Positions 1,775-60,289 of a stretch of DNA of 64,000 bases are shown here, piece after piece (position 1 is the stretch's first letter; each line of letters opens with the position of its first letter). The DNA comes from a virus (lineage: Duplodnaviria; Caudoviricetes), in the IMG/VR virus record IMGVR_UViG_3300010270_000379, positions 1 to 64,000 of that record; one strand, 5' to 3'. A model generated the notes under the pieces. It did no database searches and had not been told where the DNA came from. It worked only from the letters and a program-made list of their open reading frames with translations. The translations under genes were made by a program, and so were the position numbers.

Positions 1775-1881
1775 AAAAAAAAGCCGGAATCCCTGTTTAT
1801 AAGGAATTCCGGCTGCTAATCTCTTAACATACCAATAAATTAATTTTCTATATTATAACATATCTTATGAAAAATTGGCAA
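1775..1881 (-). promoter_or_regulatory. Late-type promoter with leader hairpin and terminator, copy 1 (tail fibre)
   Basis: TTGCCA-18-TATAAT, then TGTTA-AGAGAT-TAGCA, stem GCCGGAATTCC/GGGATTCCGGC, then T8. Confidence 0.8.
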
Positions 1882-1884
1882 GAT

Positions 1885-2976
1885 TTAAGCATCTTTAATT
1901 ACAATATCAAGGTATGCTTTTACACCCTGAGCTCTTAGATAATCAAGTAAATCCTCATAAACATCTTTTGCAAAACCTACAGCAACACCTGATAAGAATG
2001 ATTTATCAAAATAACCATAATTATTATATCGAGGTAAAGGTGGAGTAGATTCTTGTGTTTCAATATTCGGATCCGCATCACCGGCAGCTAATCCAAAGGC
2101 ACTTTCAGCAGTATCACCTTCAAAATGTGCAATTACTGTAAAACTACCGTAAGGCTGTTTTGCAAATAACCTGAAATAATCAATATATGTTTTTGTATCT
2201 ACATAACTAAAAGTAATAGTAATACTAGTTGCATTATTAGCTGTTATAAAGAATAAACTTTCGTTATTCCAGGTATCAACTGATGAAAAACTGTTATTAA
2301 CAGCAGAACTATTCCAAGATTTTGTAGCAAAATTCCAATATTTATTGTTATTATCTTTTATTTGAACATTTACTTTTCCTTTAAGGAAGAAATGCAAGAA
2401 ATAAGTTGTTGATGCATTTATATTTATACTCTGACTTGCTGCTGCTCCAGATTGATTCAAGAGTATTCCATAGGCCTTAGAAAATCTTGCCTCAGCAGAT
2501 GCACTACAATTATTTAAGGTCCATGCAATAGGTGTATCAGTTTCAATATCTCCATCAACAATTAAGTTTGCTAAAGAAGGTGATGGATCATCTATTTTAT
2601 TAGTATTTTCAACTACATAAATTACAGCATGTGGAAAATACTGTCTAAATACGTTTTTAACATCATAAACAGTTCCCCATCGTGTATCGTGGTTTCTTAC
2701 AAAAATAGCCTTGAACCTGTTTTTTAATGAATTTTCTGATTCATCAGCATATCTTTCGAGAAAAGAAAAGAATTTGACTGTTTTTTCAAGCATAACACCT
2801 GATTGTTGGTATATATCAGGTGTAGAGAGCCATTCTCGCATATATGTAATTAGATCTAATAACTGTCTTTGTATAGAAGCATCCCCATTATCATTAGCAA
2901 TGATGGAAGAAAAAACAGGTTTACTTTTATCTATCGTCTTAGGAAAGTTGCTTCTAATCTGATTTGTAATATCCAT
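1885..2976 (-). CDS. Baseplate wedge protein (gpI-like position) with a carbohydrate-binding-like insert
   Basis: Immediately downstream of baseplate J; C-terminal LLDYLRAQGVKAY resembles wedge proteins; beta-rich central region. Confidence 0.55.
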   Translation of the reverse strand: MDITNQIRSNFPKTIDKSKPVFSSIIANDNGDASIQRQLLDLITYMREWLSTPDIYQQSGVMLEKTVKFFSFLERYADESENSLKNRFKAIFVRNHDTRWGTVYDVKNVFRQYFPHAVIYVVENTNKIDDPSPSLANLIVDGDIETDTPIAWTLNNCSASAEARFSKAYGILLNQSGAAASQSININASTTYFLHFFLKGKVNVQIKDNNNKYWNFATKSWNSSAVNNSFSSVDTWNNESLFFITANNATSITITFSYVDTKTYIDYFRLFAKQPYGSFTVIAHFEGDTAESAFGLAAGDADPNIETQESTPPLPRYNNYGYFDKSFLSGVAVGFAKDVYEDLLDYLRAQGVKAYLDIVIKDA

Positions 2977-2991
2977 CGTTTCCCCCTCCGT

Positions 2992-4077
2992 TTATTGACT
3001 AATAATATGGATTTCTACACTTCCAAATCTGGCAATCTGATTTACAGCAATAGGAATATTATCAGAATGACCATTAAGAGTAAGACCTGAAATATCTGTT
3101 ACACCGGATATTTGTTTCAGCAATACTATAATAGAAGATAAAACAACATTTTCATGTATTCCAAGGCCATTAATGTATTCCTGTAATTTTACAGTAATAT
3201 CATTTTGTACCCTTGCATCATCAATACGGAAAATTGTAGCAGTAACTTCAATGTCGATTGTATAAATTGTGGCAGCACTTACTTCTACCATAGTTCCGGC
3301 AGCTTTTAATCCAGGATTTTCTTCTGTATCTGTTCCATTAATTAAATCAGTTATTTGGTTAGCCAAATCTGGTGTCAATGAACCGGTTCCATCATCAACA
3401 TAAACAGTGAAGTTATAAATGTCAGATTTTGGTGGGAAATGTTCTTCTATACCAACAGAGCGAACACCTTCAATACCTAAAACACCGGCCATAATTCCAT
3501 AACGGTTAGAGCCTTGCAGCCCATTTATCATATACTTAAATCGTCTAAGCATTTGTGTCTGAGTTTCGGCATCTGTTCCACCTACAGCCTGGGCCGGATT
3601 ATTTACACCAACAATTTCAGCAGAAAGATTACTTTCTATTGTTGTAATAGTATCTTCCGGTACGTTATATTGAAGTCCAATATTTTCAGCAGTAGCACCA
3701 ACAGTATTAGAAACGGTTTCACCAATTGGAATTGTTGCTGCAGATGTAGTTATAAAAACTAAACTTCCGTTACTAACTCTTGTTCCAGAAGGAATAGTTG
3801 AAACAATTCCTAAAGCTGCATTTCTGCTAAACTGTAAATCGACACTAGCTTTCTGGCCGGATTTCTGCTTAAAATCGAAAACAGAATAAGGAATAGCTCT
3901 CAAATTGTTGTTATATCCATTTCTTGTATCAATATAAGCCTGTTCTAAAGGTCTAGCAATTGATTCAAAAATAGTCATCACAATAGAGCCTTCGTTAAAA
4001 TCTGTAAGCCCTGAGTTTCTGGCAATTGCATTTTCTTTCATTTCACTAAGTATTTGATTATAGTTTTTAGTATCCAT
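2992..4077 (-). CDS. Baseplate J-like protein
   Basis: DFNEGSIVMTIFESIA, GGTDAETQTQMLRRF and FTVYVDDGTG motifs typical of Baseplate_J. Confidence 0.9.
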   Translation of the reverse strand: MDTKNYNQILSEMKENAIARNSGLTDFNEGSIVMTIFESIARPLEQAYIDTRNGYNNNLRAIPYSVFDFKQKSGQKASVDLQFSRNAALGIVSTIPSGTRVSNGSLVFITTSAATIPIGETVSNTVGATAENIGLQYNVPEDTITTIESNLSAEIVGVNNPAQAVGGTDAETQTQMLRRFKYMINGLQGSNRYGIMAGVLGIEGVRSVGIEEHFPPKSDIYNFTVYVDDGTGSLTPDLANQITDLINGTDTEENPGLKAAGTMVEVSAATIYTIDIEVTATIFRIDDARVQNDITVKLQEYINGLGIHENVVLSSIIVLLKQISGVTDISGLTLNGHSDNIPIAVNQIARFGSVEIHIISQ

Positions 4078-4541
4078 TATATTGTTCCTCCAAAATTACG
4101 TTTTGCACCGTTTTTATCTATATATGTAACTGATACAGTTAGATTGTCACCCTTCCCTTTGAAATTAATATCTTCAACACTATCAACTCTAGGATCCTCG
4201 ACTGTTGTTTGATGTACACTAGCCTGGATTAAGGCTGATGTAGCATTTAAGGCATCACCGATAGAAGCCTGAATTCCATAAGCCTCTATTCTTATTCTTG
4301 CACCAACTAAGGTTGAATATCTATTTAATAGAGCTTGTCTAAGATTTTCTATACCACCAACAAGAGCTAAATCACCGTTATATATATCTAAATCCTTATT
4401 ATTGATAAGAATATCTTTACCGTAATTGTCCTTTACATCAGGATTGTTATAAACTTCATTTTCGGCCGTTTTACTTTCAGCAAAGTTTAAATTCGGAATT
4501 AAAATACTCTGTCCTGGTTTTAAGATAGTATCTTTATCCAT
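4077..4541 (-). CDS. Baseplate gp25/GpW-like protein
   Basis: DLALVGGIENLRQAL...YG...EDPRVDSVE pattern; upstream of J. Confidence 0.8.
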   Translation of the reverse strand: MDKDTILKPGQSILIPNLNFAESKTAENEVYNNPDVKDNYGKDILINNKDLDIYNGDLALVGGIENLRQALLNRYSTLVGARIRIEAYGIQASIGDALNATSALIQASVHQTTVEDPRVDSVEDINFKGKGDNLTVSVTYIDKNGAKRNFGGTI

Positions 4542-5808: not shown

Positions 5809-5813
5809 TTTAA

Positions 5814-8533: not shown

Positions 8534-8630
8534 AAAAAAGCCGGAATAATGCGAAAACATTACTCCGGCTGCTAATTACTAACATACCTTGTGTTTTATA
8601 TATTTTATTCTATAAGTTTTCTATTGTCAA
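8534..8630 (-). promoter_or_regulatory. Late-type promoter with leader hairpin and terminator, copy 2 (baseplate operon)
   Basis: TTGACA-17-TAAAAT; TGTTA-GTAAT-TAGCA; GCCGGAGTAATG/CATTATTCCGGC; T6. Confidence 0.8.
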
Positions 8631-17171: not shown

Positions 17172-17288
17172 AAAAAAAAGGCAGCCTAAAATCTAATCTC
17201 AGTAAGATTAAATTCTAAGCTGCCCTTTTCAGAACATACTAATTATTATGTCTATTTTGATTTTATTCTATTAATGCTCTGTTGTCAA
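17172..17288 (-). promoter_or_regulatory. Late-type promoter with leader hairpin and terminator, copy 3 (sheath/tube operon)
   Basis: TTGACA-17-TAAAAT; TGTTC-TGAAAA-GGGCA; GGCAGC...GCTGCC; T8. Confidence 0.8.
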
Positions 17289-25253: not shown

Positions 25254-25367
25254 AAAAAAAATAGGGCAGCCACAACGAATAACGTTATGACTGCCCTTTT
25301 CAGAACAAATCTTAATCTAAATATGGAATATATTATTATTATAAATCTATAATTTTACATTTGTCAA
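25254..25367 (-). promoter_or_regulatory. Late-type promoter with leader hairpin and terminator, copy 4 (protease-capsid operon)
   Basis: TTGACA-18-TATAAT; TGTTC-TGAAAA-GGGCA; GGGCAG...CTGCCC; T-run. Confidence 0.8.
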
Positions 25368-25428: not shown

Positions 25429-25608
25429 TTATCTCTGAACCTTTATAGCCTTGCCGTTTTCAAACTTAATCTTAGGCTTTGGTAAACCTAATCTTTTGCA
25501 AAAATCTTCCATATCTTCACCGGCAATTTTATTATCCATTAAATCAGCTTTGGATAACGCTACATCTTTAGTCCATTTTTCTGGCTCTTTTGTTTTTGGT
25601 AAATCCAT
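25429..25608 (-). CDS. 59-aa protein, candidate antitoxin of the upstream zeta-type gene
   Basis: AGGAGG RBS; MDLPKTKEPEKWTKD...; own promoter TTGACA-18-TAAAAT in 25629-25658. Confidence 0.6.
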   Translation of the reverse strand: MDLPKTKEPEKWTKDVALSKADLMDNKIAGEDMEDFCKRLGLPKPKIKFENGKAIKVQR

Positions 25609-25681
25609 AGACTACCTCCTGTGTAAATATTTTATATACATATTATCGGTTTTGTCAAGTAAAAAAGTTACATTTAATTAT

Positions 25682-26881
25682 TTATACTTCTTCACCCTTC
25701 TTAGCTATCTTTTCAGCCGTGTACTTATTTTTACCGGTATTTGGATCCTTTTCAAAAGGAATAAAGTTATCATAGAAGGACCAATCATCGGCAAAATCTT
25801 TTACTTTATCAAAATTAGCTTCATTGCCTGTCATATTAAGTAATACATCTGGCGGCACAAATCTACCGGTAAAATCTTCTACATTCTTTTCGGTAGGGCT
25901 TTCAATATAACGTTTAATAGCACGTTTCAAACTTTCCTGTTTTGGAACATGCATATAATAAGCGCCTGTTTTATATCCGGCATCTTTAGCTAGTTTTAAT
26001 TCTTCAATCTGTTTATCAGCATTTGACATTGTAATATCCATTACAATATTAAGGCCCTGGGCCATAGCTGCCTTCATAAGCATTTTAGACAAATCTGAGC
26101 TTTCTTCATGGTAGGCCTTTGCTTTCCATCCTTCCCATTTTTCGCCGGATTCATTTGCTAATTCTTCTTTCAATGCATCTGGATCCACTACAATAACGTT
26201 ATCCTCATTGTATACACCGGCATCAGATTTCTTTTTATTGAAAGTAGACTTTCCAGAACCACCACGGCCCCCTAAAATCTGGAAAGTAGGCAATTCACCG
26301 TCTTTTGGTGTAGCTGCTGCAACTTTCTCAGGTGATAACAATTTTTTGATAATTGTTTCATGCAATTTCTGTCTTTCTGGAGTATAAATAGCGTTTACAC
26401 CTTCACCAGATTTACGGAATTTTGTAACTGTTTCAGGCTCTTTATTTGCACGTTCTAAGTCATATCTGAATTTCATTTCAAATTCAGGATGCTTTTTTAC
26501 AATAGGCAATTCAAGAATAGCCTTAATTGCGTTTTTCATTCCTTCTGGTGTAGCTGCATTAATTGATTCATCGTCATAAGTTCTTTTATAATCAGCGGCT
26601 TTAAATTTACTTGCTGCAACCTGTTTACGGCCGTATGTTGGAGCAAGCTGTTTAGTAGGTGTAGTTACCTCTTTTTTGCCTGTTCCAACACTTTCAGGCC
26701 CCTTCTTTTCTGAGTTTCCTTTAGGTGTATAAACTTCTCTCCATTTTCCAGGAGCAACCTTTTTATATTTTTTACCTCTCCACTCTCTTATTGTACCAAT
26801 TCCATAACCTCTTGATTTCTGAAAATCAATGTCATCAAGAAAAGTATTATAAACTGATTTCTTTACAAATAACTTTTTCAT
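25682..26881 (-). CDS. Virion cargo protein: shared N-terminal tag plus zeta-toxin-like P-loop kinase
   Basis: KSRGYGIGTIREWRGKKYKKVAPGKW tag; GGRGGSGKST Walker A, VVVDPDALK, YHEESS, NIVMDIT and GRFVP zeta motifs. Confidence 0.85.
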   Translation of the reverse strand: MKKLFVKKSVYNTFLDDIDFQKSRGYGIGTIREWRGKKYKKVAPGKWREVYTPKGNSEKKGPESVGTGKKEVTTPTKQLAPTYGRKQVAASKFKAADYKRTYDDESINAATPEGMKNAIKAILELPIVKKHPEFEMKFRYDLERANKEPETVTKFRKSGEGVNAIYTPERQKLHETIIKKLLSPEKVAAATPKDGELPTFQILGGRGGSGKSTFNKKKSDAGVYNEDNVIVVDPDALKEELANESGEKWEGWKAKAYHEESSDLSKMLMKAAMAQGLNIVMDITMSNADKQIEELKLAKDAGYKTGAYYMHVPKQESLKRAIKRYIESPTEKNVEDFTGRFVPPDVLLNMTGNEANFDKVKDFADDWSFYDNFIPFEKDPNTGKNKYTAEKIAKKGEEV

Positions 26882-26894
26882 TTTACACCTCCCA

Positions 26895-29708
26895 TTAAAG
26901 ACAATTACAGCGATTAAAGGCTTCACTTACCATCATTTCAGTAGAATTGAACAATTCAGGCTGCTCTGCAGAATAATCATTGAACAATGATTCATTTTCT
27001 TCTTCCGGCTCTTCTTCTTCATCTTCTTCAACAAACATATCTACAATGAAGTCATCAAAAAGAGATTTCTTTACAGTAATTCCACGTTTCTCTAGTTCTT
27101 CCTCAAATCTCTCAATTACTTCTGGATGTTCTTTAGCTGTTGTTTGATACAAAATAGCATCTCTTAAACCTAATTTAAGTTTATTATCAACCTTTGTATC
27201 TTCTGTAATGTATTCTTTTTTATCCATTACTTTATCAAGGTTGAATTTCAATCTGTCATAATTGAGTTTCAATGTTTCATCACTCATATCCGCCATTCTT
27301 TCAGTAAGATTTGCTGCTGCAGAATCGGAAAGTCTCTTGAAACGATCACCATAATGCTCTTTTATTGAGGCTACAAATTCCTCGTTTGTCTTTTTATATG
27401 CTTCTTTAAGAGCTGATTTTTTTTCATTAGCATCTTTTTTCGCCTGTCTACCCTTGCCATAATCCATTTTTTTATCTGAGCCGGACATAGGCATAAGGAT
27501 AGATGAACTAGAGCCGGTGTTAATCTCAATTGCCTTATCAGCTCTTTCACCTATCTGTAAAATGGATGTTTTACCAGATAAAGCATTTACCAGGTAATCA
27601 GCATTGATATTCATATAGTTAGTATCTTCTTTTGCCGGGCCCCAATCTTCGCTATATTTCATTTTTATATCTTTTGCTTCACCTACCGGAGTATCATCAA
27701 TGAATACTTTACCATCACGGAATTCAAGCTGAACAAGATTTGTACCTTTTTTATCAATAGCACCATCTTTCTGCATTTCTTTAATCTTATCTTTTACAAG
27801 TTTTGTATCTAAAGTTGCTGTCTGTTTAAGATCTTCTGGAATAACCTTAGAATAATTAGGGAATCTTGCATCTACATCAATTTTTTTGATATTAATTCCT
27901 GATTTATCAGTATTAATATCAACATAAGAACCATTTGGTATACCTTCAAGTTCTCCAACTTCAATAAATTTCATTCTACGAGCATCAGTAGTTATAAGTT
28001 TTCCATTTTCATAATAGACATGCTTCATAAACTCTCTACTATCCCACTTTGGAGCTACACAATTTTTAAGAGATTCAATCTCATTTGCAAGATCTTTAGA
28101 ATATGGCAATTGTACTTCATTTTCACCTACACTCTTATTACTTGCAATCGGCTGTAATTCATCAAAAGAAACAACCTTACCAGAATTATCTACACTGTAG
28201 ATTTTTTCAGTTTTTTCCTCTTTAGGAGTTTCCTTAGTTTCTTCTATAGTTTTTTCGGCTTCGGATTCTTCAAGAAGTTTTTTACATTCAGTATAAAAGG
28301 CAGCACTTAAATGATTAGAACAAAGTTCTACCTGATGATCTATATCACTTAGCAATTCAATATCAGTTTCATCTTTACTTGTAAACAATGCGTTATCTTT
28401 TACATGCTTTTCAAGTTTATTAATCAGCTTATTTTTATATTTAGAAATAACTTCATTAACGGTTGTACCTTCATCAGCATATTCTGAATAGCGTTTAAGC
28501 CTTTCATCAACAAGTTTTTTGTTTTCTTCAAGTTTTCCTTCTTTTATTATCTCCGGTAATTTTTCCTTAATTTTATCAAGTTTTTCCTTTAATTCTGCTT
28601 CTAATTTAGGCTTTGCTGTTTTTTCAAACTCTGTATTGATTTTATCAATACCTTCTTTACATCTAATTGCATTTGCAATTTCAGATCTTACAGCCCATTC
28701 TTTACCTTCTTTATCAACCTTAAATATAGCATCACCTACTTTTAATTCACCCTTACGAGCTACTTCGTTAATTTTATCAGCCATTTCAAGATATTTTACA
28801 CCCTCACCTTCATCATTTTTATCTACTCCACCAAAAGGCACTTCTTTAGTTTCAGTTTTCTTTTCATCTTCTGATTCTTCTTCATATCCAAATTCATTAT
28901 TAATAGCATCCTTCATACGGCCTGAAAGTTTTTCAAGTTCTTCACGGTATTTTTTTTCACCTTCTGAAATGTTTTTTTCTGAATAAATGAGACGTAACTT
29001 ACCTAAAGCCTCTAACTCTGGATCATTAAGTTCATTAGGATTCATCCCCTTTGCCTTTGCTTCTGGTCTTAATTTTTTAGCAACTTTATCATAGGCTTCT
29101 ACAATATTATCAAGAGTTTCAGCATCATTTTTCCCCTTTAATGATTGCTCATACTCTTTTTCATAATCTTCCTGTGTTTTTATTTTCTTTTCAGCCGGCT
29201 TAGAAGTTGTTTTACTTCCCATATCACCGTTATTCTTAGCATCTACAGCGGCACGGAGTTTATCAAGAACCGGCAAGTCAATTCCATTTTCATCAACAAA
29301 GCGCTGTTTATTCTGCATTACAAAGGCCATAAGGTCCTCAACGTTATCAATCTTCTGTACTCTTGCAATCAATTTACCAATTGCAATATTTGTACCACGG
29401 CCTTCTTTATCAAAAACTCTGGCCCATTTACCCGGAGCAATTTTCTTATACTTCTTTCCCTTCCAAATTCTGACTGTTCCTACACCGTAGCCGGCTTTCT
29501 GGATCCATTTTCCACTAATAAGAGACTTTTCAAGATGTGTATAATGTCCTTCCTGAGAATTGAAATAATCAATTGCTTTTTTTACATCTTTTTCATCCTG
29601 TTTTTTCAAGATTTCAATAATCTCTTTTTTAAGTTCTGCTAACTTTCTATCGTTTACAGCCTTACAAACATTCTTGAATTCACTAGCCTTTACCATGAAT
29701 CTTGCCAT
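26895..29708 (-). CDS. Virion cargo protein: shared tag plus DnaN (beta-clamp)-like domains
   Basis: KAGYGVGTVRIWKGKKYKKIAPGKW tag; TTDARRM, RFPNYSKVIP, INADYLVNAL and SILMPM beta-clamp motifs. Confidence 0.7.
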   Translation of the reverse strand: MARFMVKASEFKNVCKAVNDRKLAELKKEIIEILKKQDEKDVKKAIDYFNSQEGHYTHLEKSLISGKWIQKAGYGVGTVRIWKGKKYKKIAPGKWARVFDKEGRGTNIAIGKLIARVQKIDNVEDLMAFVMQNKQRFVDENGIDLPVLDKLRAAVDAKNNGDMGSKTTSKPAEKKIKTQEDYEKEYEQSLKGKNDAETLDNIVEAYDKVAKKLRPEAKAKGMNPNELNDPELEALGKLRLIYSEKNISEGEKKYREELEKLSGRMKDAINNEFGYEEESEDEKKTETKEVPFGGVDKNDEGEGVKYLEMADKINEVARKGELKVGDAIFKVDKEGKEWAVRSEIANAIRCKEGIDKINTEFEKTAKPKLEAELKEKLDKIKEKLPEIIKEGKLEENKKLVDERLKRYSEYADEGTTVNEVISKYKNKLINKLEKHVKDNALFTSKDETDIELLSDIDHQVELCSNHLSAAFYTECKKLLEESEAEKTIEETKETPKEEKTEKIYSVDNSGKVVSFDELQPIASNKSVGENEVQLPYSKDLANEIESLKNCVAPKWDSREFMKHVYYENGKLITTDARRMKFIEVGELEGIPNGSYVDINTDKSGINIKKIDVDARFPNYSKVIPEDLKQTATLDTKLVKDKIKEMQKDGAIDKKGTNLVQLEFRDGKVFIDDTPVGEAKDIKMKYSEDWGPAKEDTNYMNINADYLVNALSGKTSILQIGERADKAIEINTGSSSSILMPMSGSDKKMDYGKGRQAKKDANEKKSALKEAYKKTNEEFVASIKEHYGDRFKRLSDSAAANLTERMADMSDETLKLNYDRLKFNLDKVMDKKEYITEDTKVDNKLKLGLRDAILYQTTAKEHPEVIERFEEELEKRGITVKKSLFDDFIVDMFVEEDEEEEPEEENESLFNDYSAEQPELFNSTEMMVSEAFNRCNCL

Positions 29709-29735: not shown

Positions 29736-29840
29736 AAAAAAAAATAAGGCAGCCGACTACTAAAAATAAGTAATCGACTGCCCTTTACAGACATATCTAT
29801 GTATTTACTTTATTATGTTACATAATTATTAAATAATCAA
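29736..29840 (-). promoter_or_regulatory. Late-type promoter with leader hairpin and terminator, copy 5
   Basis: TTGATT-17-CATAAT; TGTC-TGTAAA-GGGCA; GGCAGTCGA...TCGGCTGCC; T9. Confidence 0.75.
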
Positions 29841-34784: not shown

Positions 34785-34902
34785 AAAAAAAGGCAGCTAC
34801 CAAAAAACAGATCCAAAAATCTGTTAATTGATAACTGCCCTTTTCAGAACATATTATTTGTAATGTTTAAGTTATTTTATAACAGTATTACCCAAAAATC
34901 AA
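34785..34902 (-). promoter_or_regulatory. Late-type promoter with leader hairpin and terminator, copy 6
   Basis: TTGATT-17-TAAAAT; TGTTC-TGAAAA-GGGCA; GGCAG...CTGCC; T7. Confidence 0.78.
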
Positions 34903-37208: not shown

Positions 37209-37376
37209 CCCACGTAAAATATGACTTTTTTGCTATTTACGGATTTACCGTATTTAACACTTGTTTTCTTGTCTAAAACTGTCTAAAATCTTGTCTATTT
37301 ACGTCTAATATGTAATTAATAATGTCTAAAAATGTCTAACTATCCACGTAAAATATTACTTTTAGACTTTTTAGAC
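37209..37376. repeat. GTCTA(A) array bracketed by a 20-bp direct repeat
   Basis: GTCTA at 37271, 37281, 37293, 37303, 37324, 37334; inverted TTAGAC at 37362 and 37371; CCACGTAAAATAT(G/T)ACTTTT at 37210 and 37344. Confidence 0.75.
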
Positions 37377-39779
37377 TTCTGGATAATATCTAATCCAGGA
37401 ACCTCTACACCACGGATGAACTATACCGACCGGACAATCACCCTCATTTTTACCATCCCATATAGCATATTTAGCATAAGGATCTTTAATTCTCTCATTA
37501 GGCAATGGAACATCACTCCATAAAACGATAGTTCCATTAAGTTTTTTACACTGTTTACAAGTGTTATCATCCATCATTTCAAAACGCTTAAAATAAACTT
37601 TAGAATTCGGCTCTGAGTTATATACTTCTTCCTGGATATATGCACTATTAGCGGCCATCTGGACCTCGCTATCAGCAATTCTCTGCATATCTCTATTAAG
37701 ACTTGCACACTTATCAAAAAGATTCTGAGCTACAACGGATTTACTTTGTTTATCTCTAATACCATCAATAATTATTTGCTGTATGTTATTTCGTATGTCA
37801 TCACTTACTCTAGTAACTCTCTGGGCCGCTGAATCTACTGCTATTTGAATTCGGGCCTGTCTCTCTCTGGAAATAACATCCCCGAATTTATCTTTCATGT
37901 TTTTAATAGAATCACCAATCCAATCAACGTCATATCTTTTGGCTTTAATATCAGATAATGACATTTTTCTTACGGCTTCCAGGCTATTTGTTTTTGAAAG
38001 TCTATCAAGAATAATTCCTAAACTTTCTGCAGACAATACAATTTTCTCACCTATTCCGGCATAATTACGGTTAAGATATTTTTCAAGCTCTACAACAAAC
38101 ATTTTCCATTCTGATTCTTTAATAGGAAGTCCTGTAGATGGATTATACAAAATCTTGCCTTTATGCTTTAATTCACCGGCCTTACTTACAATTCTAATAT
38201 CCGGCAAGTCAAAATATGCAATAACAAAATTATAAATAGCTCTGGTCCTATTTGTGAACTCTTTGAAATACTTATCTACAAGTTCTTCCTGAGCTTTATA
38301 TACAAAAGTCTCACCTTTACTAGCACCGGAAATATCAGCATCAAGAGACAACGCAATTTTATGTACGGCCTTTTCAATTTTGCTTCTGTCAAAATCTGTT
38401 ATTCTTACAAGTAAATTACCATAACTTGTAGATGCATCTGCCGGAATATGTTTAATCATAAACGGCTGATTATTTGCAATAGCATTTAAGGCCTTATTTA
38501 CCTGTTCAAGTTTCTGCTGTTTATTATTTTCTGTAATATCAGTAATGTTTATATCAAAAGATTTATGAACCATTTTCCCCTTATGACTGAAAATAAAGCT
38601 CTTAAACTGCTCCATTGTCATTGTTGTCATGCTGCCATAAAAACCTGGCCTATCGTATTGTTTCATATAGGCTTTTTTTGCATCCTCAGCACTTGCAAAA
38701 CATAACATACATTTATCTTCATCGTATTTATGTGTTACCGGATCATTCTGGTGGATTACATAAACCTTTTCAGCCTTTTTATCTGGACCTACATAGCAAT
38801 CTAAGTGATCTTTGTCTACTCCTACAGTTCCACGGATATAACCATAATCATAATTCATATATGTCCGCCATTTATGACCGTCTTTATCTACTCCTGAACG
38901 ATATGAGCCTTTTTTATTTTCGATAGAAATATCCATACCATAAAGTTTAGTTCTACCCTGTAATTTATGGCCGGAATAAGTTAGAGATTTATTCAAATCT
39001 TTATAGGCTTTATATGCAATTACATTCTCTGCATCCTGATGCAATTGTTCTTCTGCAACATACCTTGTTAGTTTATCATCGTATTTTTGAATAATAGAAT
39101 CATAATCTAAACCTTTTTTATTACAAAGATGATGTAATTCTACTTTCCAATCAGTAAAAAGAGATTTATTTATAGTTTCAGGATTAATAATATAAGCAAC
39201 TTTTTTATTTAATACACGTTTATCTTCTTTTTCACAATTTTTTACAACTGATGCAGATAATTTATCATTGTTACCTATTTCAAACTTTACAAGTTTTTCA
39301 TCTTGCCAATCTCCACCACAAGCAATTATGAAATATGTATCAGAAAGTTCCATAAGTTCACAATTCTCTAAATCTTGTCCTTTTGGATAACCTTCAATCT
39401 CATAAACTTTTTTAGGAATTAAATGAAAATAATCTCTTTCATCATCCATCAGTTTTAACATTTCGTTTTGCAATTCTGGTGATAATCTTCTAGTCCACAA
39501 ATTAAACAGTTTATCAGTAATAGTTAGAGATTTCTCATATCTTTTTCTATCAATTTCTCTATCTAATAAAATTATTTTTCGTAAATCTTCATCAACTCTA
39601 TCTAATAAATCCACATTTTTATTTGACTGTAATTTGCTTGTTATTTGCTTATTTTGAGAATTTAAGGCTGATTTTTGTAGTTTTTCTGCAAATTCCGGCT
39701 TAATATCCTCGATTTTTGGAGATTTTAATTTGACTGTCATTTGCTCAACTACATCTTTTTTTACCCTTACATTAGCCAT
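37371..39779 (-). CDS. MuF (gp7-like) head protein with an internal inorganic-pyrophosphatase-like domain
   Basis: C-terminal IADSEVQMA...TCKQCKKLNG...HPWCRG MuF motif; ISIENKKGSYRSG...DYGYIRGTVGVDKDHLDCYVG...DEDKCML InPase motif. Confidence 0.85.
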   Translation of the reverse strand: MANVRVKKDVVEQMTVKLKSPKIEDIKPEFAEKLQKSALNSQNKQITSKLQSNKNVDLLDRVDEDLRKIILLDREIDRKRYEKSLTITDKLFNLWTRRLSPELQNEMLKLMDDERDYFHLIPKKVYEIEGYPKGQDLENCELMELSDTYFIIACGGDWQDEKLVKFEIGNNDKLSASVVKNCEKEDKRVLNKKVAYIINPETINKSLFTDWKVELHHLCNKKGLDYDSIIQKYDDKLTRYVAEEQLHQDAENVIAYKAYKDLNKSLTYSGHKLQGRTKLYGMDISIENKKGSYRSGVDKDGHKWRTYMNYDYGYIRGTVGVDKDHLDCYVGPDKKAEKVYVIHQNDPVTHKYDEDKCMLCFASAEDAKKAYMKQYDRPGFYGSMTTMTMEQFKSFIFSHKGKMVHKSFDINITDITENNKQQKLEQVNKALNAIANNQPFMIKHIPADASTSYGNLLVRITDFDRSKIEKAVHKIALSLDADISGASKGETFVYKAQEELVDKYFKEFTNRTRAIYNFVIAYFDLPDIRIVSKAGELKHKGKILYNPSTGLPIKESEWKMFVVELEKYLNRNYAGIGEKIVLSAESLGIILDRLSKTNSLEAVRKMSLSDIKAKRYDVDWIGDSIKNMKDKFGDVISRERQARIQIAVDSAAQRVTRVSDDIRNNIQQIIIDGIRDKQSKSVVAQNLFDKCASLNRDMQRIADSEVQMAANSAYIQEEVYNSEPNSKVYFKRFEMMDDNTCKQCKKLNGTIVLWSDVPLPNERIKDPYAKYAIWDGKNEGDCPVGIVHPWCRGSWIRYYPEV

Positions 39780-40211: not shown

Positions 40212-40308
40212 AAAAAAGCAGCCGGCAACAATCCTTAAAAGATATTGCCGACTGCTCATTACAAACAAATCGTATTTATATTATAAATCACTTTTTGTAT
40301 AAAATCTA
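40212..40308 (-). promoter_or_regulatory. Late-type promoter with leader hairpin and terminator, copy 7 (LPD3-MuF operon)
   Basis: TAGATT-17-TATAAT; TGTTT-GTAAT-GAGCA; GCAGTCGGCAA/TTGCCGGCTGC; T6. Confidence 0.75.
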
Positions 40309-40316: not shown

Positions 40317-42032
40317 TTACCAATTTGAACCTGGTTTCTCATATCCAAACATCGCATTTACTTGCCGCAAGCTCTTACCCTTTTTAATAACATTAGTCTC
40401 ACCGTAATTGTTTACGGCATTTTGATTTTTAAGCTCTACCTGGACTACTTCTCTTTCTGCATCCGTTTTATTTACGTTTTCGGCAATCTTTTGGACTTCT
40501 GGATTATTTACAGTTTTCAAAAGTTCCTGTTTTTTCTTTCTTCTCTGAGCATAGAAATTATCATTTTTAGCATCTGTTGATACTACGGCTGAATTTGCCA
40601 AAGCCCAAGCCCAAAAACTATCCGCATGGCCTTTATCATCTCTACTTGCATCATAACTAAAATGTTTTCCACCACCTCTATCAATTCTTTTTATACTATG
40701 AATCTGCATGTGAAATTCTTTATCATTACTCAGTAAGAATTCTTTCTGTTCAAGGCCACGTTTTACATCAATTGCTAAAATCTCTTTTGATTCCTGAGTA
40801 AACTGAACACCTTCTACACGATCACCTACAACTGCATGTACATCCTCATAAATATTATCACCTATTCCGGTTCTATCAATTTTGCCACGGAATACAGGTA
40901 ATTCTTTATAGGCTTTTATTATCATTTCTTTCTGTTTTTTATAAGTTTCATTTTTTAATTCAATTCTGGCAAAATCTCTTTTCTTGCCCTCTGCTGTTCT
41001 TCCCATTAAAAACAAAACACTTAAATCTTTATGGCGGCCAACATCATAACCAAGGAATAAAGTCTTTCCGTGATATTCTGGCCGGTAATTAAGAATAGCT
41101 GTATCTAAATCTTTATAAGCCTGAAAATCTATTCCACGGTTATATTCCCAATATTCTTCATCACTCATTTTTTCGCATAAAGACAAATCAATATCAGATT
41201 CCCTCTTTCCAGGTGTGTTTTCATAAATCAAATCAAGTGAAATATAGCTTTCTGATGAATCAATAAACATACATTCAAACTCTTGTTGAAATGTATCCAT
41301 ATCACTGTTTTGAAAAATCATTTTTAAGATTTTTGTTCCAAAAGTCTCTACACGTTCTTCTGTAGATAACTCTGGAGCAACTTTTACAGCCGTAGGAACA
41401 TCTACACAAAGATCACGGCAAAACCACCAAGGAATATTGTATCTTTCATAATCGTATGTCTCTTTGTCAGTTAAAATATCATAGAATTGGCCGATTTTAC
41501 CTAGAGGCGAACTTCCCATTTCAATAGTTCCACCACGAGAAATTACAGGCAAAGCAGCATCATAGACTAATTTTTGCATCTTAGGATTATAAATAGCAAA
41601 TTCATCAAGAGAAATATCACCACCTTTACCACGAGGCGGCCTACAAGGAATAGATATAAGTCTTGATTGAGTAATACCGTTTTTATCCTGGAAACATAAC
41701 ATAGATTTATTATCAGTTATGAGCTTTTTCTTTGCATCACAATCTGGAATAGATTCATAGAACTGTTTAGCGTAGGATATTTTCTCTAGTGCATCTTCTT
41801 CATTGTAAGAGACAAACTGTTTTGTATATCCTATCCTGGCCGGATCCATAGCCTTTATCAGGCCCTTCAAGCTGCAGATAAACGACCAACCTACACGTCT
41901 TGACTTTACAATAGCGATAAATCTGGCCATAGATTTTATATATTCATCTTGCCAAAAGTCTAAGAGTAAGTCTTTCTGTTGAAATTGTATGTAAGTATAG
42001 GCATAAAGCAGCCGTTCATCTTTTGAAAACAT
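40317..42032 (-). CDS. terL: Terminase large subunit
   Basis: KSRRVGWS ATPase motif, ISLDEFA Walker B, LGYDVGRHKD and GHADSFWAWALA nuclease motifs. Confidence 0.93.
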   Translation of the reverse strand: MFSKDERLLYAYTYIQFQQKDLLLDFWQDEYIKSMARFIAIVKSRRVGWSFICSLKGLIKAMDPARIGYTKQFVSYNEEDALEKISYAKQFYESIPDCDAKKKLITDNKSMLCFQDKNGITQSRLISIPCRPPRGKGGDISLDEFAIYNPKMQKLVYDAALPVISRGGTIEMGSSPLGKIGQFYDILTDKETYDYERYNIPWWFCRDLCVDVPTAVKVAPELSTEERVETFGTKILKMIFQNSDMDTFQQEFECMFIDSSESYISLDLIYENTPGKRESDIDLSLCEKMSDEEYWEYNRGIDFQAYKDLDTAILNYRPEYHGKTLFLGYDVGRHKDLSVLFLMGRTAEGKKRDFARIELKNETYKKQKEMIIKAYKELPVFRGKIDRTGIGDNIYEDVHAVVGDRVEGVQFTQESKEILAIDVKRGLEQKEFLLSNDKEFHMQIHSIKRIDRGGGKHFSYDASRDDKGHADSFWAWALANSAVVSTDAKNDNFYAQRRKKKQELLKTVNNPEVQKIAENVNKTDAEREVVQVELKNQNAVNNYGETNVIKKGKSLRQVNAMFGYEKPGSNW

Positions 42033-44965: not shown

Positions 44966-45745
44966 TTATGCTTCCTCGTCTTGATCTTTCATAGTTTCGA
45001 TAAATTCCCCGGCTGCCTCAGCTTCAACCTGGTTATGTTGAATAATTGATATTTTAGCCGTTACTTTATCTTTAATAGCTTCAAGAGTTACAACGGTATC
45101 AGTTTTCTTTTCATCGGCCCCTGTAATTTTTGAAGTCAAAAGTTTATGATAATTCATAAGGGCCTGACGTGCTGATGCTCTTGTTTCGATTGAATAATGA
45201 GCATAGCCATTTTTATCGTAGTCAAATCCGGCTACCATTTTTTTCTGACTAGGTGTTAAATCTCTAAGTTGTTTATCATCAATAATGTCAAAACTACCTT
45301 TTTCCCCCAGATCAATTAATTTATCCTCTTTGAAGGCTGTTCTATCACAATTCAAAACTTCGCGGCAAAATTGAATATCTTCGCGGAAAATATCTTCAAT
45401 TTCCTGTAAAGACGTTGTATTAAATAAATCATCAACACGTTTTCTAATATGAGGCTGCTGCAAGGCCCATGATCCATATGCTTTCCAATAAGCGCCGGCA
45501 AGTTCACCGGATTTATTTACCTTACCGCAAGAAATTGATGTAGGACTTGTATAAAAAAGAATGAATAATTTTTCTTTTGCTGTAAATTCTTCACCAAAAG
45601 AAGCAAGCATTTTATCAAGTCTTTCATCACCATCTGGACCTTCTGGAAGTCTTAAAATATTTTTAATTTCTTCTCTGGAAGGCTCTGTATTTTTCTGCTT
45701 TTTCTTTGTTTTAGTAGGTTGATTTTCAATCTTCTTTCTTGCCAT
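44966..45745 (-). CDS. terS: Terminase small subunit
   Basis: FTAKEKLFILFY...AG...LQQPHIRKRVDDL HTH followed by an oligomerisation-like region; upstream of terL. Confidence 0.65.
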   Translation of the reverse strand: MARKKIENQPTKTKKKQKNTEPSREEIKNILRLPEGPDGDERLDKMLASFGEEFTAKEKLFILFYTSPTSISCGKVNKSGELAGAYWKAYGSWALQQPHIRKRVDDLFNTTSLQEIEDIFREDIQFCREVLNCDRTAFKEDKLIDLGEKGSFDIIDDKQLRDLTPSQKKMVAGFDYDKNGYAHYSIETRASARQALMNYHKLLTSKITGADEKKTDTVVTLEAIKDKVTAKISIIQHNQVEAEAAGEFIETMKDQDEEA

Positions 45746-45908
45746 TTTCAACCTCTGCATTTTTAGCACAATTGTGAATTAAATAGCCAAAAGTCACGCG
45801 GCCATTTTCCGTAACAAATCTTAATTTTTCAGCATCACAAGCTATAGATTCCTGAGAAGTTGTAGCGATGTATTTTATTTCAGCTCCGCAATTTTTACAC
45901 TTCTGCAT
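45726..45908 (-). CDS. Zn-ribbon hypothetical protein
   Basis: CKNCGAEIKYI...GYLIHNC. Confidence 0.55.
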   Translation of the reverse strand: MQKCKNCGAEIKYIATTSQESIACDAEKLRFVTENGRVTFGYLIHNCAKNAEVENGKKED

Positions 45909-50703: not shown

Positions 50704-50800
50704 AAAAAAAGAAAGCCCTCTAAGCCTGATAGTTCTTAGAGGGCCACAAAGTTCTTGTTGCCAAAAACCTTTAAGTAATCTATCAGGACCTTACTTAAAG
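50704..50800 (-). promoter_or_regulatory. Attenuator-like leader upstream of the replication genes
   Basis: Hairpin loop CCUGAUAG is complementary to terminator loop CUAUCAGG; terminator GCCCUCUAAG/CUUAGAGGGC-UUUCUUUUUUU. Confidence 0.7.
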
Positions 50801-50882
50801 ATTCTTTTAAACGTTTTAATGCACGTTCGCAATTTCTTTTAAACGTGCTTTTAAACGGTGTTATATAAAAAAAATACACCCA

Positions 50883-51281
50883 TTACGCTTGTTTGTCAAG
50901 AATTTCTTCCCATTTTTGAAAAGTATTATTCCATCTGGCCGGCACTAAGCAGCCTTTTTCTTTACTCCAGACTTTACCAGGCTCTTTAGGTGGTTCTGTA
51001 TATCTTGTTCCATCAGATCTAGCACAATAATACATTCTAAATGTTTCAGCCGTAATATTTGCAGCACCACATTTAATACATTCATAATGTGAATCAAAAT
51101 ATTCAACATAGGATCCATCATTTTGTTTTACAGCCTCAGCAGTTTTTACAAATTTTAAGGGCCTTAATTTCTCTTTCCAATTAATCCCTTCCTGTTCCAT
51201 TTGTTTTACACAATACGGACAAAACTCATATTTTGTTTTACCTTCCAGGTATTTATGTGAAATTTCACGTTTATTTGACAT
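50883..51281 (-). CDS. Zn-finger hypothetical protein
   Basis: CPYC...CIKC. Confidence 0.55.
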   Translation of the reverse strand: MSNKREISHKYLEGKTKYEFCPYCVKQMEQEGINWKEKLRPLKFVKTAEAVKQNDGSYVEYFDSHYECIKCGAANITAETFRMYYCARSDGTRYTEPPKEPGKVWSKEKGCLVPARWNNTFQKWEEILDKQA

Positions 51282-53234: not shown

Positions 53235-53236
53235 AA

Positions 53237-55115: not shown

Positions 55116-55186
55116 AGTGTTTTTCTCCTTATATTTACTTTTATACCCTAAGTGTATATATTTTGTTTACACCTAGGGCAAAAAAA

Positions 55187-57138: not shown

Positions 57139-57340
57139 ACAGATTACTCCTTGCGATGTAGGTTTAAGTTTCTCAGGCTGTGGCCTACTTCGCTTGTAAA
57201 AAGAAAGCCCTTAGAAGTTTTCCACCTTGTAGGAGAGATACAAGGTTCTGCACGGAAAAACCTCTAAGGGCTGTAAAGTTGGCAAGCAACTTAGAAAAGT
57301 GCAGATTTTTTCTAAATTGCCTAAACAGATTGACAATCTG
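57139..57340 (-). promoter_or_regulatory. Structured antirepressor leader with terminator
   Basis: Hairpin loop UCUGCAC; terminator hairpin carrying a GUGCAGA bulge and ending AGGGC-UUUCUUUUU; third hairpin next to the RBS. Confidence 0.7.
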
Positions 57341-57344
57341 TATT

Positions 57345-57444: not shown

Positions 57445-57450
57445 AGCGTT

Positions 57451-57729: not shown

Positions 57730-57736
57730 CCTCCTA

Positions 57737-57791
57737 TAAGATTTTTGTCGTTCGTCATTTATGTCGCGCGACTTTTCCAGAATCTTATAGG
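57737..57791. terminator. Hairpin between convergent repressor and LuxR genes
   Basis: TCCTATAAGATT...AATCTTATAGGA inverted repeat. Confidence 0.55.
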
Positions 57792-57854
57792 AAATATATT
57801 GTTTTAATGTAGTTGAATTCGCTTGAATCGTCACTTTAATTGCTTAAAGCAAAA

Positions 57855-58508
57855 TTAAAGGCCATTTTCTTGTTTAAATTTCTCTACCAATTCACCGGTA
57901 GAATTGCACATATTTCTTTCCCTGGCTGATTTTATTTTATGTGTTATTGTCTGCTCTGAAAACAGGCCTATTTCTTTTTGTAACTTACCTTTTGCAAGCT
58001 CTTTTAAAATATCTATTTCATCCTTAGTTAGATTTAGTTTCTCTGGTTTATTAATTGCAAATACATAATTCATTTTAATCTGAAACATAAACACATAAAC
58101 TATATGAATCAGAAAGGCAACTATATCTAATCTTTTAATACTAAATGAAATAACAACGTTTATAAGATATATCCAGGGAGCTACCTTTTTTAATTTTGGA
58201 TTAGCACCTATGGCAATCAGCATAAAAAAGATTGTAGCATAGTTATAAAACATGTTTACATAAACTAATGAGCATGAATATATTAAAAGTCTATAAGATA
58301 AACCTTTACGACCAAACAGGAATATAAAAAGTGATATAATACCGCATCCACCGGCACGTAAATACCAATGATATTCTATGCTGCTAGTTTTATATTCATA
58401 AAAATGCAATGCAATTAAAAGTAAGTGTAAAAGAAAAATGTGTAATAAATCTTTGTCATTTATAAGTAATAAATATTTTTGTTTCAGCTTTGTAAATAGT
58501 TTTCTCAT
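57855..58508 (-). CDS. Multi-TM protein with a C-terminal LuxR-type HTH
   Basis: About five hydrophobic segments, then LTKDEIDILKELAKGKLQKEI...SEQTITHKIKSARER. Confidence 0.75.
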   Translation of the reverse strand: MRKLFTKLKQKYLLLINDKDLLHIFLLHLLLIALHFYEYKTSSIEYHWYLRAGGCGIISLFIFLFGRKGLSYRLLIYSCSLVYVNMFYNYATIFFMLIAIGANPKLKKVAPWIYLINVVISFSIKRLDIVAFLIHIVYVFMFQIKMNYVFAINKPEKLNLTKDEIDILKELAKGKLQKEIGLFSEQTITHKIKSARERNMCNSTGELVEKFKQENGL

Positions 58509-58542
58509 TTATGCTTTTATTTTCGGCATAAATGAGATTAAA

Positions 58543-60144
58543 CTAAATTATGAGCATCGACTTTCTGATTGATTTATTCATATCGGCTGTATCCGGTGGA
58601 ATTTCTTCTTCTGTCTCAGTTTCTTCAAATCCGGCTTCTTCACCGCCGCCAAAATCACCCATATCTCCGCCCATACTGTCATCATTCATGGTCTGTTGGC
58701 TCTGGAATAACTGTACAAGTTGTACATTCATAGGCAAGTCTGCAGCATTTTCAACTTTTCCCAAGTCTATAGGATCCAGGCCCTTCTCAGCTCTCTTTTC
58801 GTTTACAGTTTTCCAGGTTCTTACTTCTTTTTCATCCAGATCCGCGATAGTGTTAGGATTATCTTTTTCATATCCTACAAACTCTAATACATAATTTTCA
58901 TCAATTTTTTCAATGATTCTGTTAAGATATGATTCAAAGAATACAAGTAAATCACCAAGTAAAGAACTTTTTGCAGCAGCAATTCTATCAGATCCGGCAC
59001 TATCAATAACAGGCTGTGACTTTTGAATTTGTAATCCAATTTCATCAGCAGAACAACCAAATAAAGCTAATACACCACTTACAAGATAATCTATCCAAGC
59101 CTGGAATTCCATTTCACGGTTAGTATTTATCGGCTTCCACTCGATTTTAGCATCTTTATCGCCACTAGGAATAATTGGAATTCGCCACTGATTTAACGGA
59201 CTTCCTGACATAATCTCACTTATGTATTCTTCCATTTCATCAAGATTATCAGAATTCATATCACCGCTTAAAAGTAACATACCTTTAGGCAATCTGTTTT
59301 CAGTAAAGTTTCCGGCATTGTAAATGAATGTGTTAATAACCGATGTAATAAGATCTACGGCCTGTTCTACAAGAGAATAACCATATTTTGAATGGTAAAT
59401 GTCGGTTCTAGGATTTTCAAAGGCAAAAATCATATTTTCATAGGTGTAACCGGCTGCCGGCATACCGTCTACAATCTGCAAATACTTGAATGTAGTTTCA
59501 TTTTCCTTCTCAGGTATTACACATTCAATAGTTGCAGCATCCACGGCAAAAAACGCTACCGGCTCACCCTTTTTATTATACTGAATTTCTGTTGCTATCT
59601 GGTCCAATGTCAATTCATCACGCAAAAGTTTAGTACAATAAGTAACAAAATTGTCACGGCCTGGATCCTTATAATTTCCGGTTGAAACAATAAAATCCCT
59701 GATTAAATCACATTTTTTATCTTCATTTTTGTTGTTGGATATAATTTCTTCATACTTTTTATGTATAATAAATCCTCGTTCATTACGACTTGTAACCGGC
59801 TTCAAAAATGGTTTAATTCTTCTTGAAACATAGTTGATACAGGTATTAATAATCCAGGCCTTAGATGCTACAGCCCTTAAAGTTCTACAATGAATTCCGC
59901 CATACTGAATTCTTGATAGAGTTCTAATATTCTCAAAACTATTAGATGATACAAAATAAGGATCATAGAAAACAGAATCGGCACCATGTTCACGGCCTTT
60001 TTCCTGGAAGAAGTAAGTATTAAAGATATTTTTACTATCCTTTTTAGCTTCTACAAGTTCATTATAAGCGACTCTCTTAGAATTTGTTTTATCAAAAGCT
60101 GCTCTTTGTTTTAAAAGTTTATCAACATCAATCTTTTCTGCCAT
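58543..60144 (-). CDS. Portal protein
   Basis: RDELTLDQIATE, FFAVDAATI, YGYSLVEQ, NAGNFTENRLPKGML, REMEFQAW and KTVNEKRAEKGLDPI. Confidence 0.9.
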   Translation of the reverse strand: MAEKIDVDKLLKQRAAFDKTNSKRVAYNELVEAKKDSKNIFNTYFFQEKGREHGADSVFYDPYFVSSNSFENIRTLSRIQYGGIHCRTLRAVASKAWIINTCINYVSRRIKPFLKPVTSRNERGFIIHKKYEEIISNNKNEDKKCDLIRDFIVSTGNYKDPGRDNFVTYCTKLLRDELTLDQIATEIQYNKKGEPVAFFAVDAATIECVIPEKENETTFKYLQIVDGMPAAGYTYENMIFAFENPRTDIYHSKYGYSLVEQAVDLITSVINTFIYNAGNFTENRLPKGMLLLSGDMNSDNLDEMEEYISEIMSGSPLNQWRIPIIPSGDKDAKIEWKPINTNREMEFQAWIDYLVSGVLALFGCSADEIGLQIQKSQPVIDSAGSDRIAAAKSSLLGDLLVFFESYLNRIIEKIDENYVLEFVGYEKDNPNTIADLDEKEVRTWKTVNEKRAEKGLDPIDLGKVENAADLPMNVQLVQLFQSQQTMNDDSMGGDMGDFGGGEEAGFEETETEEEIPPDTADMNKSIRKSMLII

Positions 60145-60181
60145 TTTTAAGGTTCCTCCCAAAAATTAGAAAATTTAAAAT

Positions 60182-60289
60182 AAAAAAGCCGGCTATTGTC
60201 TTTTTCAACAATAACCGGCTGCAGATTTCTCAACATACCTGATATATAATTTATAAAGATATTTTACACTATAATGTTTTAATTGTCAT
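60182..60289 (-). promoter_or_regulatory. Late-type promoter with leader hairpin and terminator, copy 8 (portal)
   Basis: ATGACA-17-TAAAAT; TGTTG-AGAAAT-CTGCA; GCCGGTTATTG/CAATAGCCGGC; T6. Confidence 0.78.

Follow-up and report, generated by a model that had tools for sequence, protein, structure and literature searches.

The stretch analysed here, hereafter the window, comprises positions 1 to 64,000 of the viral record IMGVR_UViG_3300010270_000379, and our analysis covered the record at its full 75,648 bp. All long open reading frames (ORFs) of the window are carried on the minus strand, and on that strand eight intergenic leaders, which we designate E1 to E8, share one small RNA hairpin set directly against an intrinsic terminator. 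E1 stands ahead of a tail-fibre-like protein, E2 ahead of the baseplate and tube-initiator block, E3 of the sheath and tube block, E4 of the prohead protease and SU10-type capsid protein, E5 and E6 of two blocks of large 'cargo' proteins (one of them zeta-toxin-like), E7 of a 150-aa protein together with MuF, and E8 of the portal. The order within the units is constant. Each opens with a sigma70-type promoter and a brief AU-rich segment, which lead to the box RRUW-UGUY...GCA-G; a long GC-based stem follows, then the U-run, the ribosome-binding site (RBS) and the start codon. The motif is real and conserved, an uncatalogued RNA element, and the leader terminators it marks make up a late regulon of the phage.

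When the whole record is searched with a covariance model built on the 31-nt core of the hairpin, eight copies and no more score 32-39 bits, and the next match reaches 17 bits. With a loose pattern 5 matches were obtained versus 1.16 expected, and a wider regular expression returned the eight copies plus two matches that lie inside ORFs and have no terminator. Every copy is intergenic and oriented with the transcription of the genes it precedes. A promoter scoring 9-12/12 was found at all 22 copies examined in six genomes. It lies 9-45 nt ahead of the hairpin; measured from the -10, the copies of the window span 12-30 nt and those of the relatives 9-45 nt. Of the eight highest-scoring promoter-like sites (at least 11/12) on the two strands of the whole genome, five lie at these leaders, the lysis leader described below being counted. 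One extra near-consensus promoter, TTGACA-18-TAAAAT (11/12; 25629-25658, minus), is located upstream of a 59-aa ORF (25429-25608) just before E4. A 'TTATAG' motif seen in the promoter spacers was discarded, being absent as a conserved feature from the relatives G5, G3b and G4.

The leader terminators are strong (-19 to -34 kcal/mol) and follow the hairpin with no spacer. In a scan of minus-strand terminators the only strong ones were those of the eight late leaders and of two early leaders (U-runs at 57206 and 50714), with no further strong terminators inside the late operons. The eight units fall into two classes. In E1, E2 and E8 the terminator (GCCGG...) begins at the base after the hairpin, and the two folds coexist, differing by 0.3-0.6 kcal/mol. 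In E3 to E7 the 3' arm of the hairpin (GGGCA or GAGCA) is also the bottom of the terminator stem, and a fold constrained to keep the hairpin is 8-12 kcal/mol less stable; in E3, E4 and E7, the copies in which the gap was measured, such a fold separates the stem from the U-run by 3-7 unpaired bases, at which intrinsic termination should be abolished.

Much of this layout had been proposed in an earlier sequence-only reading of the window, and on re-reading the intergenic regions we confirm the places and strand of all eight sites, the promoter before each hairpin, its variable distance from the -10, the division into three abutting and five overlapping copies, and the position of the terminators, fused to the hairpin, between strong promoters and virion genes. 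The hairpin strings it quoted are exact, although we prefer to read the stem as 6 bp capped by a GNRA tetraloop. Its further claim that hairpin and terminator are mutually exclusive in five copies agrees with the folding of E3 to E7; in E1, E2 and E8 the two can coexist.

The hairpin is 15-16 nt long; its stem of 5-6 bp is capped in nearly all copies by a GNRA tetraloop (GAGA, GAAA or GUAA, and GCAA in relatives). For the analysis of covariation we assembled 27 distinct hairpin sequences from six related genomes, drawing on IMG/VR relatives, the prophage of the Treponema metagenome-assembled genome (MAG) G002, a third full genome (G5) and the fragments G3b, G4 and G001. Standard pairs occupy 96.9% of cells in this set and both sides have changed in 4 of the 6 pairs. 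The covariation score is 0.595 versus 0.246 +/- 0.033 in shuffles (0 of 500 reach it), and controls in which the partner column was shifted by 1-3 positions stay at or below 0.255, so that the covariation of the inner pair noted earlier is not only borne out but extended. The portal leader illustrates such compensatory changes, reading UGUUGA-GAAA-UCUGCA in the window, UGUUAA-GCAA-UUAGCA in G002 and the all-A/U stem UAUUAA-GAAA-UUAAUA in G001 (L099:10334-10364). Even within one genome the inner three pairs keep their complementarity while their sequence varies. The third stem pair is an invariant U.G wobble, replaced by U-A or C-G in some relatives, and departures from stem symmetry are mostly of the G.U type. 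Single-stranded flanks are conserved as well, namely a U two bases before the hairpin and a G just after it; across relatives, variation is lowest at the stem base, at that upstream U and in the CAG on the 3' side.

Taken together, the compensatory changes, the U.G wobble, the G.U-type departures, the strand-specific GNRA loop and the fixed orientation point to a hairpin that acts as RNA and not as a duplex-DNA operator, as had been suggested from the sequence at the outset. At 16 nt it would also be too large for a non-template-strand DNA element of the ops type. A search of Rfam gave no match to the hairpin, either at the gathering score or at E up to 1. Several other identities were set aside. 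A leader peptide starting at the hairpin (AUG, UUG or GUG) would have no properly spaced RBS and inconsistent ORF lengths, and G001 has AUA there; a sigma-dependent pause at TATGTT is ruled out, position 2 not being conserved; and a SPO1-late-like phage-sigma promoter or P2 Ogr-type TGT-N12-ACA site is at odds with the variable spacing to the gene start, the variable terminator stem downstream and the covariation of the hairpin.

The claim that every late operon carries the element is nearly correct. TerL (40317-42032) and the gene upstream of it in the terS position have no copy of their own, and both end the replication/recombination block; the terS call (267 aa) was made by synteny with the Terminase_2 genes of L057 and L059, no Terminase_2 match being found in the window. 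Outside the window, on the plus strand, a ninth leader heads the lysis cassette with the same layout as the eight, but its hairpin is divergent and receives no score from the covariance model. G002 keeps an orthologue of this lysis leader with the loop ACAAA, and in G5 a canonical hairpin copy heads the endolysin gene. Given the canonical copy at the endolysin of G5 and the ninth leader at the lysis cassette, the regulon corresponds to the classical late set of virion plus lysis genes. Coordinates of all leader parts are collected in Table 1.

Table 1. Parts of the late leaders and position of candidate B (window coordinates unless marked; energies in kcal/mol)
Feature	Position	Strand	Remarks
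E1 promoter TTGCCA-18-TATAAT (tail-fibre leader)	1852..1881	-	11/12
E1 hairpin UGUUAA-GAGA-UUAGCA	1814..1829	-	36.2 bits
E1 terminator and U-run	1775..1813	-	abuts hairpin; -19; coexists with hairpin
E2 promoter TTGACA-17-TAAAAT (baseplate-block leader)	8602..8630	-	
E2 hairpin UGUUA-GUAAU-UAGCA	8570..8584	-	32.9 bits
E2 terminator and U-run	8534..8569	-	abuts hairpin
E3 promoter TTGACA-17-TAAAAT (sheath/tube-block leader)	17260..17288	-	
E3 hairpin UGUUCU-GAAA-AGGGCA	17221..17236	-	34.5 bits
E3 terminator	17172..17224	-	5' arm GGCAG overlaps hairpin 3' arm; -34.0 vs -22.3 with hairpin forced
E4 promoter TTGACA-18-TATAAT (prohead protease/capsid leader)	25338..25367	-	12/12
E4 hairpin UGUUCU-GAAA-AGGGCA	25292..25307	-	38.3 bits
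E4 terminator	25254..25296	-	overlaps hairpin 3' arm; -26.7 vs -16.0 with hairpin forced
E5 promoter TTGATT-17-CATAAT (cargo operon A)	29812..29840	-	
E5 hairpin UGUCU-GUAAA-GGGCA	29779..29793	-	34.4 bits
E5 terminator	29738..29784	-	overlaps hairpin 3' arm; -25.4 vs -16.0 with hairpin forced
E6 promoter TTGATT-17-TAAAAT (cargo operon B)	34874..34902	-	
E6 hairpin UGUUCU-GAAA-AGGGCA	34836..34851	-	37.1 bits
E6 terminator	34785..34839	-	overlaps hairpin 3' arm; -33.8 vs -22.1 with hairpin forced
E7 promoter TAGATT-17-TATAAT (150-aa/MuF operon)	40280..40308	-	
E7 hairpin UGUUU-GUAAU-GAGCA	40253..40267	-	32.0 bits
E7 terminator	40212..40255	-	3-nt overlap with hairpin; -26.0 vs -17.6 with hairpin forced
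E8 promoter ATGACA-17-TAAAAT (portal operon)	60261..60289	-	
E8 hairpin UGUUGA-GAAA-UCUGCA	60220..60235	-	39.2 bits; one U-U mismatch (U-A in relatives)
E8 terminator and U-run	60182..60219	-	abuts hairpin
Lysis leader: TAGACA-17-TATAAT, GGUG, hairpin UUAGA-GCCAA-UCUAA, abutting terminator GCCGGC...U8	genome 72526..72620 (L006:12526-12620)	+	
Candidate B, 60-aa CxxC...HxC zinc-ribbon protein	45726..45908	-	directly upstream of terS-position gene and terL

The phage that carries these leaders is, judging from its relatives, one of a Treponema host of the ruminant gut. Relatives of its portal come mostly from ruminant and other gut Treponema MAGs; some are filed under Acutalibacteraceae, Lachnospiraceae, Clostridia, Muribaculaceae or Methanobrevibacter MAGs, the majority being Treponema, and these other filings are probably mis-binned phage contigs. 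G002 contains a syntenic prophage with its host flanks, no close relative was found among deposited phages, and parts of the phage are listed among public runs only in ruminant gut DNA runs, with no RNA run listed. Its gene content is that of a temperate phage: the record holds CI-like repressors, an antirepressor and RecT/YqaJ recombination genes, and a tyrosine integrase lies at its end outside the window (genome 74470-75648, minus; L006:14470-15648). A circular contig closing through the fibre gene was ruled out, the end gene being this integrase, and the record is an excerpt of a prophage, without the attachment site and the final portion of the fibre gene.

The search of related phages with a covariance model, called for when the element was first noticed, shows that it is kept in related Treponema prophages. 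In the 2.6-Mb G002 genome all six matches to the model lie inside the prophage, while none of the 15 terminators in 35 kb of its host flank carries a GNRA mini-hairpin, and these counts support an element that is phage-specific and conserved among such prophages. In more distant relatives the layout of promoter, hairpin and terminator is kept and the hairpin has drifted, to UAUGUC-AAAA-GACAG in L057, to UGCUUG-UAAC-AAGGCA in L058, G3b and G4, and in G006 and L059 to UAUUCCUU-AGAA or AUGA-AAGGCAG plus a YGC-ARAA-GCR type. Both types occur in the one Treponema prophage of G006 (L114-L117, C8, about 45.5-105.5 kb), where UAUUCCUU-AGAA or AUGA-AAGGCAG precedes the capsid and sheath blocks and the YGC-ARAA-GCR type the cargo block. 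The G001 prophage shares only portal, MuF and dUTPase with the phage of the window. A scan of viral contigs with a motif-plus-U-run pattern was abandoned, its matches being mostly chance or unrelated.

How might such leaders work? We favour, at a probability of roughly 0.58, a hairpin-directed and short-range antitermination by a trans-acting factor at each late leader. Transcription from the host-type promoter of each unit would meet the intrinsic terminator within about 60-110 nt, and this default stop would cover both the unit's own transcripts and read-in from the upstream operon. As the RNA emerges, the GNRA hairpin would fold immediately next to the terminator's 5' arm and be recognised by a factor that the phage encodes and produces at an earlier stage of the lytic programme. 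Once bound, the factor would grip the hairpin base and the adjoining base or bases so that the bottom terminator pairs next to the U-run could not close or, alternatively, the tethered factor would act on the nearby polymerase; in either case polymerase would read through into the virion genes. It is the zero spacing, the conserved single-stranded flanks and the class of leaders without competition between hairpin and terminator that suggest a factor gripping the hairpin base, and since action would be short-range every late unit would need its own copy at its own terminator. We infer efficient termination, its relief by a trans-acting factor and which protein that factor may be. Of the switch proposed earlier, then, the RNA element, its fusion to the terminator and its phage-specificity are supported, and the coexistence of hairpin and terminator in three of the eight copies sets a limit to mutual exclusion. 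Pure refolding of the RNA is the less likely mechanism. More tentatively, and on balance doubtfully, the system could be a minimal N-like one of spirochaete phages, acting at short range, in which an orphan protein of ~60-78 aa restricted to the clade reads the GNRA hairpin and blocks closure of the terminator base, with neither boxA nor a processive complex. If true, this would explain a site that is copied to each late and lysis unit and that drifts together with its factor between subclades.

Candidates for the factor were shortlisted among the early genes conserved across four element-carrying genomes. Candidate A is a 78-aa protein (genome 66450-66686) encoded in the operon divergent from the CI-like repressor, with a nearly invariant core and N-terminus (MSGKxEKKIRQLVRRNQ) and 170 orphan homologues; its AlphaFold model has three helices with a long basic first helix (predicted local distance difference test, pLDDT, 73) and is not diagnostic. 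Among 19 genomes with related portals it occurs only in G002, G003 and G005, plus one weak divergent match in G015, and the contigs searched by covariance model or structure scan hold six canonical-type copies in G002, one in G003 and five to seven in G005. Other conserved early proteins were found in 8 (the Xis-like 108-aa protein), 14 (DUF1351), 15 (a 295-aa protein) and 16 (the zinc ribbon) of these 19 genomes, and the distribution of candidate A fits that of a cognate factor. Candidate B, the zinc ribbon, is always the gene immediately preceding the terS-position gene and terL, and it is clade-wide like the leader layout. A gene position just upstream of terS/terL is classical for late regulators, and the role of candidate B as the factor is putative. 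Searches of Pfam, PHROGs, PDB sequences and the ESM Atlas gave no function and no named relative for either protein. We consider candidate A unlikely to be the factor and candidate B slightly less likely still, the rest of the odds falling to another protein or a host factor. An arginine-rich 78-aa ORF (61016-61252) was dropped as not conserved in G002, and a 98-aa double-helix-turn-helix protein as absent from G5.

Several observations weigh against the proposed antitermination. By itself the hairpin has little stability (-0.6 to -4.1 kcal/mol), and because hairpin and terminator coexist in 3 of the 8 copies a competition for pairing cannot by itself be the common mechanism. Among ~90 ORFs scanned against Pfam and PHROG we found no N, Q, AlpA, NusG/LoaP, CAT/PRD, ANTAR, Com or other RNA-binding family. 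Candidate A is encoded in an immediate-early position, an odd timing for an activator of late genes, and its profile could simply mark a subclade, while G001 possesses one variant hairpin copy and neither candidate protein.

In the strongest of the competing explanations, which we nevertheless regard as improbable, no factor is required: the terminators would mainly block read-in, the hairpin, being quick to fold, would compete kinetically with them and set a fixed partial read-through for each unit, and late timing would come from promoter control or genome copy number. Such an attenuator or insulator would suit the five of eight hairpins that share their 3' arm with the terminator, the failure to find an antiterminator family in the ORFs scanned, and the location of the units between co-oriented operons, on account of which they necessarily end the upstream transcript. 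It does not account for the invariants beyond what pairing needs (the U at -2, the U-A/G-C/U.G stem base and the G after the stem) or for the three copies that have no overlap with the terminator; moreover, the alternative fold is favoured over the hairpin by 8-12 kcal/mol, and near-consensus promoters placed right before strong terminators would be wasteful if there were no relief.

Distinctly improbable, in our estimate, is an element of RNA stability or processing with no bearing on termination: a hairpin near the 5' end would shield late transcripts against 5'-dependent RNases or show where the RNA is to be processed. A -10 just 9-13 nt upstream in several copies would place the hairpin 3-6 nt from the 5' end, and the conserved flanks could be the site of a nuclease or protector, but in other copies the -10 lies 30-45 nt away, and the zero spacing, the shared arm and the presence of a terminator between promoter and gene would all be left unexplained. 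Very improbable is a DNA-level site, in which the near-palindrome TGT-N10-GCA would be the operator or loading site of a DNA-binding late regulator of Q/AlpA or Ogr type (the Xis-like 108-aa helix-turn-helix protein or the zinc ribbon being candidates) that loads on polymerase paused near the promoter and carries it through the terminator: the order of promoter and terminator is that of lambdoid PR'-tR' and AlpA targets (PMC9371919, PMC7969949), half-sites 10 bp apart would suit a dimer and an Xis/AlpA-like protein is conserved next to the immunity region, yet the inner pairs stay complementary as they change within one genome, most departures from symmetry (the invariant U.G included) are of the G.U type, the spacer is a strand-specific GNRA and the site has a single orientation relative to transcription, the -10 distance varies over 9-45 nt, the -10-like TATGTT has no A at position 2 in many copies, and the Xis-like protein is also present in genomes with different hairpins. 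That 108-aa protein, conserved beside the immunity region, has an excisionase-type helix-turn-helix by eye and matches PHROG 668 ('HTH DNA binding'), with no Pfam AlpA or PDB sequence match.

Textbook models of phage late-gene control comprise Q, the Ogr/C activators and the sigma factors of T4 or SPO1, and to our knowledge nothing is known of late-gene control in spirochaete phages. For antitermination read from RNA the closest comparison in shape is lambda N, whose arginine-rich N-terminal helix reads the GNRA fold of boxB. Here, too, a small hairpin with a GNRA-type loop would form in the nascent RNA, the likeness of its 5-6-bp stem being one of shape only, and candidate A, likewise small and with a conserved basic helix at its N-terminus, is encoded beside the immunity repressor. 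The lambda boxB sequence given in the sequence-only reading agrees with the printed one, agcccugaaaaagggc (PMC2724277); the resemblance of our hairpin to it is an analogy, not homology. No boxA was found between the -10 and the hairpin, a region of 9-45 nt that is AU-rich, unconserved except for RRUW and in several copies too short to hold one, no Pfam or PHROG match to the N family was found among the phage ORFs scanned, and the zero spacing to the terminator is unlike that of nut sites. The two nut sites of lambda serve early genes and act processively across kilobases, whereas eight to nine sites are seen here, each with its own promoter and terminator and placed at late genes, and it is the stem base and flanks, not the loop alone, that are most conserved. 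Processivity is not required by this layout since the late operons contain no other strong terminators.

In the BglG/SacY/LicT systems a protein stabilises the ribonucleic antiterminator (RAT) hairpin, roughly 29 nt with internal loops, in the leaders of sugar operons. Those systems share with E3 to E7 the use of the hairpin 3' arm as the terminator 5' arm, and with all units the single site per terminator and, on our proposal, the short range; they differ from the 16-nt GNRA hairpin of a phage late regulon in which E1, E2 and E8 have no overlap, and no CAT RNA-binding/PRD domain protein was found by Pfam among the ORFs scanned. Lambdoid PR'-tR' with Q, like the targets of AlpA, combines a constitutive-looking promoter with a short-range terminator that is bypassed for late or lysis genes, with Q/AlpA loading by way of a DNA element and a sigma-dependent pause at a fixed promoter-proximal position of a single late promoter, and acting processively (10.1101/651190; PMC9388147; PMC9371919; PMC7969949). 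The close succession of promoter and terminator is common to both, and short RNAs would be expected as a by-product, but the element described here is RNA-like, variable in its distance from the promoter, always in touch with the terminator and repeated eight to nine times. The LoaP leader of Bacillus velezensis, which answers to a NusG paralogue, likewise needs a small leader hairpin upstream of an intrinsic terminator for antitermination; a pause site lies there about halfway between hairpin and terminator (PMC12691694), in contrast to the zero spacing of our leaders, and no NusG/KOW protein was matched among the phage ORFs scanned. ANTAR regulators bind two tandem hexaloop hairpins where we see a single hairpin with a tetra- or pentaloop, and no ANTAR domain was matched among the same ORFs; conAn and Tn916-type antitermination were set aside as single-site systems with long leaders.

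Literature searches turned up neither this design nor any account of antitermination in Treponema phages, and the earlier statement that no described system could be recognised holds for RNA families (Rfam) as for papers; the design looks like a variant of hairpin-directed antitermination that has not been described before. For annotation of this phage clade the motif is a practical marker of late operon starts, and for uncultivated Treponema phages it offers a handle on the timing of virion and lysis genes. Should a small orphan protein read the hairpin, it would represent a new family of RNA-binding antiterminators, and the hairpin/terminator pair, if it works as proposed, would be a compact and portable switch for synthetic biology.

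The two early leaders (window 57139-57340 and 50704-50900, minus) have their strong terminators and no TGTT hairpin, and could represent a separate, earlier antitermination step. Together with the minimal N-like reading, if that is true, such a step would turn the whole lytic programme of these phages into a cascade of RNA-directed antitermination.

Among the genes behind the leaders, the MuF protein (window 37371-39779, minus) possesses an inorganic pyrophosphatase (InPase) domain, and one 'cargo' protein (window 25682-26926, minus) a zeta-toxin/AAA_33 kinase domain. In G002 (C7:99400-102100) the portal lies beside a 135-aa gene and MuF under a single leader. In the window the portal and a 217-aa protein (57855-60162) are found ~16 kb upstream, with the replication block between and with E8 and E7 as separate leaders. 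The 217-aa protein (57855-58508, minus), encoded just after the portal, has several predicted membrane helices and, by eye, a LuxR/GerE-like C-terminal helix-turn-helix, and is conserved in G002 at 54% identity.

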